A stretch of 64,000 bases of DNA from Vicinamibacteria bacterium (GTDB taxonomy: Bacteria; Acidobacteriota; Vicinamibacteria; Marinacidobacterales; Marinacidobacteraceae): positions 96,001-160,000 of the forward strand of contig OZ241322.1 in NCBI GenBank assembly GCA_965199715.1. The letters are read 5' to 3'. Shown one piece after another: positions 55,306 through 62,330 of the stretch (position 1 is its first letter; each line of letters starts with the position of its first letter). Position numbers and translations under genes: made by a program. The notes beneath the pieces are model-generated. The model made no database searches and was not told where the DNA came from. It saw nothing but the letters and a program-made list of their open reading frames with translations.

Positions 55306-55415
55306 GGGGAGTCGAGCTGAGAAACGTGAGCCTCACTCTGCTCTCGAATCAAGCTCCTCATTCGGCCGAGGCCGACGATGGGGAGTCGAGCTGAGAAACG
55401 TGAGCCTCACTCTGC
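55306..55415 (+). repeat. 36-bp perfect direct repeat pair with 38-bp insert at the cas3 start
   Basis: GGGGAGTCGAGCTGAGAAACGTGAGCCTCACTCTGC at 55306-55341 and 55380-55415. Confidence 0.95.
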
Positions 55416-58168
55416 CCTTCAGCGATGCGTTCGGAGCGCTGACCGGGTTCCCGCCCTTCCCGTGGCAGGAGCGCCTCTACGAGGAGTGCTTCCGTCGGGG
55501 GTCGCTGCCGTCCGCGGTGGACATTCCGACGGGCCTGGGCAAGACCGCGGTCATGGTGATCTGGATGCTCGCCCGCGCGGCCGGGGCGGATTTGCCGCGC
55601 CGGCTCGTGTACGTCGTGGATCGCCGCGCCGTCGTCGATCAGGCCACCGAGTTCGCTGAGCGGCTTCGAGCCGCGCTGCACGGGGAAGACCGGCTGAAGC
55701 CGGTCCGTCTGGGACTCGGTCTCGAGGACCGCAAGCTACCCATTTCAACCTTGCGCGGTCGCCACGTGGACAACCGGGAATGGATGGCCGACCCGACCTC
55801 CCCGGCGATCATCGTGGGGACCGTGGACATGGTGGGTTCCCGGTTGTTGTTCGAGGGATACGGACTCTCGCGCCGCATGAGGCCCTTTGCGGCTGGGCTG
55901 CTCGGCTGCGATTCGCTCGTGTTGTTGGACGAGGCTCATCTCGCCCGACCGTTCGGGCGCTTGCTTCGCGCCATCGAGATCGGGACGACTCCGCCCAGCT
56001 CGCCAGATTCCGACGGGCCGGCGGGGACGCTCGCCGGCTCGGCGAGCGCGACGGGCCTGCCGCCGCGCTTTCGCGTGCTGCCTCTCTCTGCGACATTGGA
56101 TCGGACTTCGACGACCGAGGCCTTCGGTCTGGACGAAACCGACGAAGGGAACCCGATCGTTCGCCAGCGACTGCATGCGCCCAAACGCATTGCGGTCGAA
56201 GCGCTCGAAGAGTTCCGGAAGCTCGACGAGCAACTCGCCGACCGGGCGTGGGCGCTTGCCGCCGATCACGAGAAAGGGACATTCAGCCGTGTCGCGATCT
56301 TCTGCAACTTCAGGAAGGACGCAGAGAAGGTCGCCGACGCTCTAGAGAAGAGATCGCGCAAGGAGAATTCGGACGCCTACGTCATTCGGTTCGTCGGAGG
56401 CCGGAGGGTCCATGAACGGCAGCAAGCCGCGGACGAGCTGGTGAAACACGGGTTCATTGGCGACTCCGTGACGGCGGCGGAGCGGCCGACGTTCCTCGTC
56501 GCCACGTCGGCGGGAGAGGTCGGAGTCGATCTCGACGCGGAGCACATGGTGTGCGACCTCGTGGCGTGGGAGCGGATGGTGCAGCGCTTGGGTCGCGTGA
56601 ATCGGCGGGGCAGCGGCGCGGCGCGGGTGGTCGTCATCGATCAGGGCCCGCCAGCGAAGCCGGCTCCCGGTCCGCACGTCGTGGCGCGCCACCTCGCGGT
56701 GGCCGCCCTTCTCGATGAGCTGCCACGGGACGACGCAGGCGAGAAGCAGGCGGGCCCGGCGGCGCTCGCGGGTTTCGCTTCGCACAACGGCCGAAGCGAA
56801 AGAACCTCGGAGGCCACGACCCCGATGCCTCTCTATCCGGCCCTTACTCGCCCGCTCGTCGACGCGTGGGCGATGACGTCGATTGAGGAGAATGCCGGGC
56901 GGCCTGCGATTGCGCCCTGGTTGCGCGGGTGGGTGGAAGACGACCGCCCGCAGACCGCCGTCTTATGGCGCCGCTTCCTGCCCATTTGCAGCCGAGTCGG
57001 TTCCGACGAGCCGGCCGCTGTCCGGAAGTCGGACGCCCGCGAGTTTTTCGCCGCGGCGGCGCCTCAAGCGGCGGAACTGTTGGAGACGGAGTCCGCCCGC
57101 GTCGTTGACTGGCTCCGTAAGCGTGGCAGCGCAGTTCGGAAGAAGTTGGTCGGCGCGAAGGACGAGAAGGGCGGAGAGCCTGGTTCGGTAGGCCTGAGCG
57201 TGCGTTGCCCCGTGGTCGTTGTACTGGATCGGGCCAACGGCTTTGTGCGCACCATGTCCCTCGACGAGATTGAGGAATCCACGAGCGACAAGCGGCGCCG
57301 GGATCGACTGGCGGAGGAGTTCGCAGCAAGGCGGGTCGTCGTGGACGTTCGCATCGGCGGCCTGACGGACGGCCTTCTCGATGAAGCAGCCTCCGATCCC
57401 CCGACCACGATCGAGGACAACTGGGTGGAGGCCGGCGGTGATTCAGCCGGCGGGGCGTGGACGCTGCGGGTCGATCGGTGCGAACAGCGGGACGGGGTGG
57501 TTGACGGGTGGTTCGTCGTGTCTTCCATTCCGCTCGTCGAATCGGAGGAGGGCGAGCCGCGGGCGTGGTTGGTCGTGCGGAAGCGGCGCACCGCGGGTGA
57601 GAGTGAGCACGCGAGGTCCGTCGCCGGAAAGCTCCAACGGCTCGAAGACCACCATGACTGGACCGGAGAGGAGGCCGCCCGCATCGCAGCGAGGCTGGGC
57701 CTTGCTCCCGACGAATCGGCGATGCTGGTCGCCGCAGCCCGATTCCACGACCACGGCAAGGCGGCGGCCCGCTGGCAGCGGGCGTTCGACGCGCCGCGCG
57801 AGGGCGGTCCCTTCGCCAAAACGAAGAGAGGACCCAACCAGCATCTGCTGAACGGGTTCCGGCATGAACTCAAGTCGGCCTTCGATGCGGAGCGGATGGG
57901 ATTGGATGGCGTCGAGCGAGGCAGCGCGTACTTCGATCTGGCTCTGCACCTGATCGCCGCGCATCACGGCAACGCCCGTCCCGGCATCAAGGTCGGCGGC
58001 TACGACGATCTTCCTCCGAGCGCCGCCGAGGCGGCGGCGCTGGCGATCGGAATTCGGTTCGCGCGCCAGCAGCGCCAATGGGGGCCGTGGGGCCTCGCCT
58101 GGTGGGAAGCGTTGCTCCGCTCCGCGGATCAGGCGGCTTCGCGGAAGCTGGATGAGGAGGGGTCCTGA
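55400..58168 (+). CDS. cas3: Type I-G (I-U) Cas3 helicase with C-terminal HD nuclease
   Basis: PFPWQ, PTGLGKT, YVVDRR, GTVDM, DEAH, SAT, QRLGRVNR, C-terminal HDHGK, RHE, HHG, SAD; GTG start inferred. Confidence 0.93.
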   Translation: MSLTLPFSDAFGALTGFPPFPWQERLYEECFRRGSLPSAVDIPTGLGKTAVMVIWMLARAAGADLPRRLVYVVDRRAVVDQATEFAERLRAALHGEDRLKPVRLGLGLEDRKLPISTLRGRHVDNREWMADPTSPAIIVGTVDMVGSRLLFEGYGLSRRMRPFAAGLLGCDSLVLLDEAHLARPFGRLLRAIEIGTTPPSSPDSDGPAGTLAGSASATGLPPRFRVLPLSATLDRTSTTEAFGLDETDEGNPIVRQRLHAPKRIAVEALEEFRKLDEQLADRAWALAADHEKGTFSRVAIFCNFRKDAEKVADALEKRSRKENSDAYVIRFVGGRRVHERQQAADELVKHGFIGDSVTAAERPTFLVATSAGEVGVDLDAEHMVCDLVAWERMVQRLGRVNRRGSGAARVVVIDQGPPAKPAPGPHVVARHLAVAALLDELPRDDAGEKQAGPAALAGFASHNGRSERTSEATTPMPLYPALTRPLVDAWAMTSIEENAGRPAIAPWLRGWVEDDRPQTAVLWRRFLPICSRVGSDEPAAVRKSDAREFFAAAAPQAAELLETESARVVDWLRKRGSAVRKKLVGAKDEKGGEPGSVGLSVRCPVVVVLDRANGFVRTMSLDEIEESTSDKRRRDRLAEEFAARRVVVDVRIGGLTDGLLDEAASDPPTTIEDNWVEAGGDSAGGAWTLRVDRCEQRDGVVDGWFVVSSIPLVESEEGEPRAWLVVRKRRTAGESEHARSVAGKLQRLEDHHDWTGEEAARIAARLGLAPDESAMLVAAARFHDHGKAAARWQRAFDAPREGGPFAKTKRGPNQHLLNGFRHELKSAFDAERMGLDGVERGSAYFDLALHLIAAHHGNARPGIKVGGYDDLPPSAAEAAALAIGIRFARQQRQWGPWGLAWWEALLRSADQAASRKLDEEGS

Positions 58169-62246: not shown

Positions 62247-62330
62247 GGGTGTCCAGTTCGCGAGCGTAGATTGCGATTCTCGCATCGCTCCCACTCATCG
62301 TCGGCGAATCGCGGTCCGGCTGAGGGTGTC
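62216..62330 (+). repeat. 33-bp perfect (38-bp with 1 mismatch) direct repeat pair with hairpin insert at the csb2 end
   Basis: TCGTCGGCGAATCGCGGTCCGGCTGAGGGTGTC at 62221-62253 and 62298-62330, preceded by ACTCT and ACTCA respectively. Confidence 0.95.

Follow-up and report, generated by a model that had tools for sequence, protein, structure and literature searches.

At the end of the window analysed here, a stretch of 64,000 nucleotides (nt) from a Vicinamibacteria genome (G000:C1:96001-160000, G000 being the working label of the 2.66 Mb host genome), the interference genes of a type I-G CRISPR-Cas operon carry two units, one at the start of cas3 and one at the end of csb2, in each of which a short stretch of gene-boundary DNA stands twice around a unique insert. 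What process duplicated ordinary cas sequence at these two places, and placed between the copies a fragment of the size of a CRISPR spacer? The answer favoured here, with a probability of roughly 0.85, is that both units are off-target spacer integrations made by Cas4/Cas1-Cas2, which persisted because the duplication kept both genes intact. They are most likely a further natural case of an already known process, off-target spacer integration.

The existence of the two repeat-insert-repeat units, which an earlier note made from the sequence alone had reported together with the claim that their repeats differ and consist of cas gene-boundary DNA, was borne out by repeat search and by reading the sequence base by base. 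The search returned for unit 1 a pair of 39 nt (55306-55344 and 55380-55418, spacing 74) and for unit 2 a pair of 38 nt (62216-62253 and 62293-62330, spacing 77), each with 97% identity. Read by base, unit 1 (55306-55415) is an exact duplication of 36 nt around a 38-nt insert with a period of 74, while unit 2 (62216-62330) is a 38-nt duplication around a 39-nt insert with a period of 77, its copies differing by a single T/A mismatch at the fifth base and being exact over 33 nt. The repeats of the two units are mutually unrelated: that of unit 1 holds a purine-rich ribosome-binding stretch of the GGGGAG type, the GTG start of cas3 (at 55400) and the first five cas3 codons, and that of unit 2 the last nine codons of csb2, its TGA stop (62244-62246) and 7 nt beyond. 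Of the two copies in unit 2, it is the non-coding downstream one that carries the single substitution, which would alter the conserved phenylalanine of the GGGLF motif, which is invariant or nearly so at the C-terminus of 22 aligned Csb2 homologues; the coding, upstream copy retains this motif. Unit 2 lengthens the gap between csb2 and cas4/cas1 by 77 nt, csb2 itself being complete. At the other edge, the duplicated cas3 start sits 74 nt upstream of the real one and begins a predicted open reading frame (ORF) of 22 codons, which crosses the insert and ends with a TGA 5 nt before the GTG at 55400.

The dimensions of the units agree with those of the host CRISPR array, the only one in this genome, which follows cas2 directly beyond the window end and starts about 260 nt after that gene. 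The array comprises 327 repeats of 37 nt, with an identical 36-nt core in 324 of them. Its 326 periods are mainly 75 (89), 74 (77), 76 (66) and 73 (53), with 77 (13), 78 (7) and 72 (7) less frequent, and the spacers (n=326) are mostly 36-40 nt long, with 38 (89), 37 (77), 39 (66), 36 (53) and 40 (13) as their lengths. The comparison called for in the earlier note thus shows the duplications (36 and 38), inserts (38 and 39) and periods (74 and 77) of both units to lie within the ranges of the array. The adaptation module of the host is intact, with a cas4g/cas1g fusion that scores well above its profile cut-off (Table 1), cas2 and the 327-repeat array. Set against the 38-mers of the genome, which has a GC content of 0.715, the inserts rank in roughly the lowest 5% for GC, but among the array spacers (mean GC 0.66) they lie at the 23rd to 26th percentile, an ordinary value; this weakly supports a derivation from foreign DNA. 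A simple tandem duplication was rejected as a source, as the inserts align to their flanks (score 9) no better than to random genome segments (means 9.9 and 8.9) and show no relation to them.

The array itself shows irregularities. Off-size spacers make up five of the first eight leader-proximal ones, as against eight of the other 318; those at the array start (G000:C1:160596-161300) measure 57, 45, 32, 59 and 55 nt, two of them holding pieces of the repeat, which hints at an error-prone integrase. A second irregular patch is found at spacers 261-272. Spacers 138 (31/33 nt) and 298 (24/26 nt) match adjacent sites in the host genome, at about G000:C1 1696904-1696970, and could reflect self-targeting or the targeting of an integrated element.

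Under off-target integration, each unit would be the footprint of one non-canonical event performed by the Cas4/Cas1-Cas2 of the locus itself. The integrase would attack the two strands of non-CRISPR DNA at points separated by roughly the length of a repeat (36 and 38 bp, compared to 37 bp in the array), a spacer-sized fragment (38 and 39 bp) would be joined in between the two strand attacks, and gap repair would then duplicate the stretch between the cuts. Unit 1 would be tolerated with the downstream copy still supplying the ribosome-binding stretch and GTG of cas3, and unit 2 with the upstream copy still supplying the last codons and stop of csb2. Such scars would persist because the duplication restored the very sequence that had been interrupted, and may be nearly neutral. 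The units do stand at both edges of the effector genes, which had been described as bracketing; this need not be design, because around these genes no non-coding gap of appreciable size exists other than at the two sites, the inner junctions overlapping or being 3 nt apart, and survival limited to harmless sites is sufficient to give such an arrangement. It is best read as two independent harmless hits.

In order to see how exceptional such units are, the whole genome was scanned for repeats (exact seed of 14, at least 24 nt, spacing 20-400). Among the 54 rows outside the CRISPR array, isolated near-exact repeats of 33-38 nt around a unique insert at a spacing of 70-80 were found only three times in 2.66 Mb: unit 1, unit 2 and a third unit at G000:C1:433060, with periods of 74, 77 and 72, respectively. 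A looser scan (at least 28/30 matches, spacing 40-130) gave 12 rows, the three known units and nine rows in tandem or protein-repeat families. Both scans, which miss old and diverged scars, agree with the impression by eye that the window holds no similar duplication besides units 1 and 2, and answer in the negative the suspicion that such duplications are common genome-wide; the units are far removed from chance occurrence. Three further candidates in the host genome, C1:344038 (35+4), C1:1622832 and C1:942793, were rejected as tandem or protein repeats.

The third unit (433060-433164) is a 33-nt duplication with one mismatch around a hairpin-like insert of 39 nt (433093-433131). It lies in frame within a permease-like gene on the minus strand, of which 11 residues are duplicated and 13 added. 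Four permease orthologues, including two of the same genus (73% and 67% identity), lack 17-21 residues exactly at this position, and the third unit is thus an insertion.

The same footprint recurs elsewhere. A set of 129 related I-G loci (1.585 Mb), 52 from genomes and 77 from metagenomes, was assembled via alignment of Csb2 homologues, and five of these carry units of like geometry and different sequence, two in frame within cas genes and three upstream of cas3 (Table 1); in none of the 129 does a unit lie at the cas3-start or csb2-stop junction. The period of the unit within csb2 of locus L049, 72, is also the commonest in the portion of its I-G array first examined (45/119). Where a unit lies inside a gene (the permease unit, L049, L131), its period is in all three cases exactly 72 and so divisible by three, while the periods of the intergenic and junction units are 71, 71, 72, 74 and 77, which is the pattern a selection filter would be expected to leave. 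Several candidates in these loci were not counted: L099 is a plain tandem repeat of 97 nt and not of the same class, L087 (22 nt, spacing 70) and L082 (25 nt, spacing 108) are too weak, and L088 and L125 represent genuine arrays, located where a contig ends, rather than isolated units. Two of the eight I-G-sized inserts, that of L049 and that at G000:C1:433093-433131, are strong GC-rich inverted repeats. A separate peculiarity is seen in the csb2 of L052 (7001-9610), which is matched by two overlapping tblastn pieces (residues 1-634 and 496-720), and this suggests either that about 139 residues are duplicated internally or that the frame is shifted.

A link between duplication and array is also apparent in the genome that holds L049 (G041), in which five arrays of different geometry reside and of which 2.8 of 3.26 Mb (86%) were scanned. 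For nine of its ten isolated units, a resident array agrees in period and, to within 1-3 nt, in repeat length; the nine fall into four discrete size classes, as do the five arrays (Table 1). Apart from a CRISPR integrase, no process is known to us that would make a target duplication as long as a resident repeat. At one site (G041:C1:831467-831618, locus L205) three copies of a 30-nt local sequence enclose two different 31-nt inserts with a period of 61, which looks like a neo-array that grew when this place was hit off-target a second time. A looser scan of this genome yielded no further clean unit, its output being dominated by proteins with tandem repeats of 72-nt period; the genome is also rich in REP-like palindromic elements. 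Of the explanations offered in the earlier note, ectopic spacer integration is thus well supported, through the match to the host array geometry, the recurrence in I-G loci and the units of G041 that track its arrays; the units are not working mini-arrays.

Several observations weigh against catalysis by the integrase, and the first four of these equally favour some other process of duplication plus insertion, such as template switching during replication or the rejoining of staggered break ends with filler DNA, whose CRISPR-like sizes would be coincidental. Duplication lengths scatter (28 or 33 to 39) and do not always equal one repeat length, one of the ten G041 units (36+24 = 60) falls outside all array geometries of its genome, the role of the integrase is deduced from sequence, and no protospacer was found for either insert in the searches run, so that neither a spacer origin nor a protospacer adjacent motif (PAM) is demonstrable. 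These searches, which the earlier note had proposed against phage and host sequence, returned no source within the own genome at up to 9 substitutions, none when blastn-short was run on the genome and the 326 array spacers, no exact match in IMG/VR, only chance-level hits in phage records (E of 2 or more) and none in 54 further genomes from this order when as many as 3 mismatches were allowed; the inserts of L049 and L058 likewise match only themselves in their own genomes. In addition, the flanks show no significant likeness to the leader, with an anchored identity of 13-24/60 compared to control means of 16-18 (the best value, 24/60 for L058, is not significant). Finally, no DNA allele with an empty site was found for units 1 or 2. 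The closest homologous loci share only about 60% protein identity, 40 relatives gave no DNA match to the cas3 region and hence no single-copy allele to compare, and a scan of genome contigs with a single protein for orthologous loci gave nothing; the comparison with single-copy alleles in related loci that had been envisaged thus came out empty.

A coincidence of sizes is nevertheless very unlikely. All three units of the host genome lie within the period range of its single array, nine of the ten in G041 are distributed over four size classes that follow five arrays in both duplication length and period, and ordinary tandem duplications have a different appearance, as exemplified by the 35+4 repeat at C1:344038 and the 97-nt tandem repeat of L099.

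As short direct repeats can mislead assemblers, the units were compared to the sequencing data. In contigs from runs of two other studies both inserts occur, flanked by portions of the two copies and without any difference (62224-62327 in runs X3 and X6, 55312-55409 in X6), and the depth of X3 over the unit is 172.7 compared to 153 and 150 in the flanks. One contig of an RNA library (run X7, a metatranscriptome, depth about 6) joins 62220 to 62298 and thereby omits exactly 77 nt, as an assembly artefact in the reference would predict. However, breaks at the repeats and a contig that skips one period are expected of a 31-mer graph confronted with exact repeats of 33-36 nt, and the probability that the units are artefacts of assembly is practically negligible. 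Neither was this contig counted as an empty-site allele, since collapse of the k-mer graph or template switching by reverse transcriptase fit it equally well, and no single-copy DNA contig is listed among the run contigs. Six runs, belonging to three studies, contain a fraction of 0.99 of the words sampled from the stretch (two of these six may be its source), and two RNA-library runs contain 0.82-0.83; all of them are sponge-associated or coded.

The positions of the units, at the cas3 start and in the gap between csb2 and cas4, are relevant to the operon, and mini-arrays that regulate cas genes are known from the passages available of Shmakov et al. (10.1101/2023.03.03.530964). This raises the possibility that the units are working regulatory mini-arrays, giving rise to RNAs like CreA or CRISPR RNA (crRNA), or signals for the processing of the effector mRNA. 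An RNA-library contig which begins exactly where the second copy in unit 1 does, at 55380, could be taken in the same direction, though contigs cannot show RNA ends. CreTA and other regulatory mini-arrays likewise consist of a repeat-spacer-repeat unit within a cas locus, but have flanks resembling the cognate repeat, a spacer partly complementary to a promoter, and conservation, and none of these three is seen in the units here. The likeness of the unit repeats to the CRISPR repeat (13-16) does not exceed that of random genomic 37-mers (mean 16.4, sd 1.7), so that Csb2 would find no hairpin or handle to cut. The longest exact matches of the inserts within the 12-kb cas locus are 9-10 nt, compared to commonly 10-11 nt for 150 ordinary spacers. 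Likewise, 124 of the 129 related loci lack a unit and the other five differ in sequence and place, folding of the units is unremarkable (z-scores -1.65 and -1.23), and neither an Rfam match at E up to 1 nor a sigma-70-like promoter was found. The suggestion of a regulatory RNA or processing signal made in the earlier note therefore finds no signal in repeat likeness, target complementarity, conservation or structure, and a regulatory function is highly improbable. A bona fide CRISPR array was also rejected, the repeats being gene-boundary DNA without the hairpin or the conserved ATTGAAGC-type 3' end of the host family, and having repeat folds with z-scores of -0.75 and -0.92.

The edges at which both units stand are also those of a module, and an exchange of the cas3-csb2 interference block by recombination could be imagined to have left them as scars. 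Modules are indeed shuffled in this family: cas4/cas1 was matched in 16 of the 129 related loci among the matches listed and not in the other 113, and the proteins of G041 and the window are 74% identical for Cas4/Cas1 and 53-70% for those of interference. However, recombination junctions do not yield a duplication of 36-38 nt around a unique insert of 38-39 nt, the two repeats are mutually unrelated, and the footprint is also seen far from module borders, within csb2 (L049), cas3 (L131) and the permease gene, and across G041. Module exchange, the third option that had been put forward, leaves the duplication around a unique insert as well as the scars inside genes unexplained, and there is scarcely any likelihood of it.

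Off-target integration may be compared with other systems in which a target becomes duplicated. Transposons and casposons also duplicate their target through staggered cuts and gap repair. The target duplications typical of them are much shorter than the 33-39 bp found here, where the 'element' consists of only 33-39 bp of unique DNA devoid of ends or genes. Closer to the present units are the 'neo-CRISPR' loci which Nivala, Shipman and Church reportedly obtained in 2018 by non-canonical integration in Escherichia coli, with an over-expressed type I-E Cas1-Cas2. Here, too, ordinary genomic DNA stands duplicated over the length of a repeat on the two sides of a spacer-sized insert, and the site in G041 with three copies and two inserts resembles a second integration at the same ectopic site. 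The present cases differ in that they are natural events in uncultured bacteria, that the integrase would be a type I-G Cas4/Cas1 fusion, and that two hits lie in the cas operon itself and others in frame inside genes, with no sign of array function. In Streptococcus thermophilus and S. mutans, as far as the parts of the reports available indicate, spacers are acquired ectopically inside CRISPR arrays; the integrase also acts away from the leader-proximal repeat, but its target is still a genuine CRISPR repeat, whereas that of the units here is unrelated coding or junction DNA. Judging from the portions of these sources available, new arrays can arise in E. coli through off-target integration, for which two other species provide circumstantial natural evidence (10.1101/148544), rare off-target events have been detected through shotgun sequencing (PMC7054753), such events may generate CRISPR loci (PMC6698737), and they occur near IHF-like motifs (PMC9456107). 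The passages available of the 2023 preprint by Shmakov et al. mention neither I-G nor off-target integration, and the literature searched, mostly as titles and abstracts, contained no description of off-target scars that arose naturally, whether in cas operons or in type I-G systems.

As off-target spacer integration has so far been known mainly from E. coli over-expressing Cas1-Cas2, the two scars in one cas operon, the third confirmed by orthologues and the G041 scars sorted by array size class would together constitute a clean natural record of this process. They suggest that CRISPR integrases miss their target in the wild, and that such misses can add in-frame segments of 24 residues or duplicate the starts or ends of genes. 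They also provide a simple rule by which this mutational process may be surveyed, namely that the duplication should be about as long as one repeat and the period should agree with a resident array, and a survey by this rule could test whether cas operons are preferred targets.

A more speculative extension, which is held here only tentatively and is rather to be doubted, is that the type I-G integrase is biased towards its own cas operon. This could be due to action near the site where the integrase is synthesized, or to leader-like or promoter DNA upstream of cas3. The I-G operons would then be natural hot spots of self-inflicted insertions, adding in-frame segments of 24 residues to Cas3, Csb2 and other proteins (possible because the commonest I-G unit is 72 bp, or 24 codons) as well as upstream ORFs, which may retune or weaken interference and perhaps be selected in the presence of self-matching spacers. 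In line with this, three of the four I-G-sized scars in the host genome (covered in full) and G041 (over 86%) are situated in the I-G interference operon. Among the 129 loci, two scars lie in the operon (801 kb) and three within 1 kb upstream of cas3 (92 kb), compared to none in 117 kb of adaptation genes and none in 575 kb of other flank. On the other hand, both whole genomes were selected through a cas hit, and all nine G041 scars outside the I-G operon also lie outside the mapped array-bearing regions, their distance to cas genes not having been checked.

The coordinates and dimensions of the units, of the surrounding genes and of the arrays in G041 are collected in Table 1.

Table 1. Units and genes of the I-G locus in the window, and the units and arrays compared with them. 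Lengths are given as duplication + insert = period.
Feature	Position in window	Strand	Dimensions	Remarks
Unit 1, upstream copy	55306..55341	+	36 nt (39 nt with one mismatch)	Duplicate of the cas3 ribosome-binding stretch, GTG and 5 codons
22-codon ORF arising from the unit 1 insertion	55326..55394	+	22 codons	Predicted translation, read from sequence
Unit 1, insert	55342..55379	+	38 nt	Spacer-sized; GC 0.58; single copy in genome
Unit 1, downstream copy	55380..55415	+		Functional cas3 ribosome-binding stretch and start
cas3g	55400..58168	+	922 aa	From GTG 55400; TIGR02621, 620 bits, residues 7-915 on profile 2-854
cas8g2	58168..59049	+		TIGR04106, 230 bits
csb1/cas7g	59046..60074	+		TIGR02570, 122 bits
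csb2 (cas5/6g)	60078..62246	+	722 aa	Long form common to homologues (about 720-740 aa)
Unit 2, upstream copy	62216..62253	+	38 nt	True csb2 3' end and stop, then 7 nt
Unit 2, insert	62254..62292	+	39 nt	Spacer-sized; GC 0.59; single copy in genome
Unit 2, downstream copy	62293..62330	+		Non-coding, one substitution
cas4g/cas1g fusion	62391..64000	+		NF049935, 734 bits vs cut-off 560, profile 6-535; extends past the window end to about G000:C1:160033
L049 unit			39+33 = 72	In frame inside csb2; segment absent from consensus of 22 homologues
L131 unit			36+36 = 72	In frame inside cas3; 12 residues duplicated, 12 added
L058 unit			36+35	About 270-370 nt upstream of cas3
L080 unit			37+34	About 630-730 nt upstream of cas3
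L076 unit			28+44 (about 36+36 with mismatches)	About 350-450 nt upstream of cas3
G041 array A			Repeat 37 nt, periods 74-79	
G041 arrays B and E			Repeat 36 nt, periods 65-67	
G041 I-G array			Repeat 35/36 nt, periods 71-76	
G041 array D			Repeat 29 nt, periods 61-63	
G041 units, two sites			37+39 = 76	Match array A
G041 units, two sites			36+31 = 67, 37+29 = 66	Match array B or E
G041 units			30+31 = 61 (twice at one site), 29+33 = 62	Match array D
G041 unit (csb2 unit of L049)			39+33 = 72	Matches I-G array
G041 unit			36+24 = 60	Matches none of its arrays

The operon was typed as I-G by NCBIfam profiles for cas3g, cas8g2, csb1/cas7g, csb2 and the cas4g/cas1g fusion, and the gene upstream of cas3 is cobQ. 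The start of cas3 at GTG 55400 agrees with the family profile, and for the majority of the 52 tabulated loci the tblastn alignment starts within residues 1-7. The nearest Csb2 homologues have about 60% identity to that of the window. As the NF049935 match leaves five profile positions before the ATG at 62391, the true start of cas4/cas1 is probably an earlier one, predicted at TTG 62349 or GTG 62361, both downstream of unit 2.

The arrangement of the two modules varies among the related loci. Most of these (L011-L062 and L070-L146) show a cas3-csb2 block with no cas4/cas1 within 7 kb downstream, and in G041 some 2.5 kb separates cas3 from the adaptation genes, which are found upstream of it in divergent orientation. 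The adaptation and effector modules appear to have separate histories. Elsewhere in the window, an open frame of 1086 aa (49098-52358) has matches to the amidohydrolase family in three separate stretches, and may represent amidohydrolase domains in fusion or in tandem, or else a frame called too long in GC-rich DNA.

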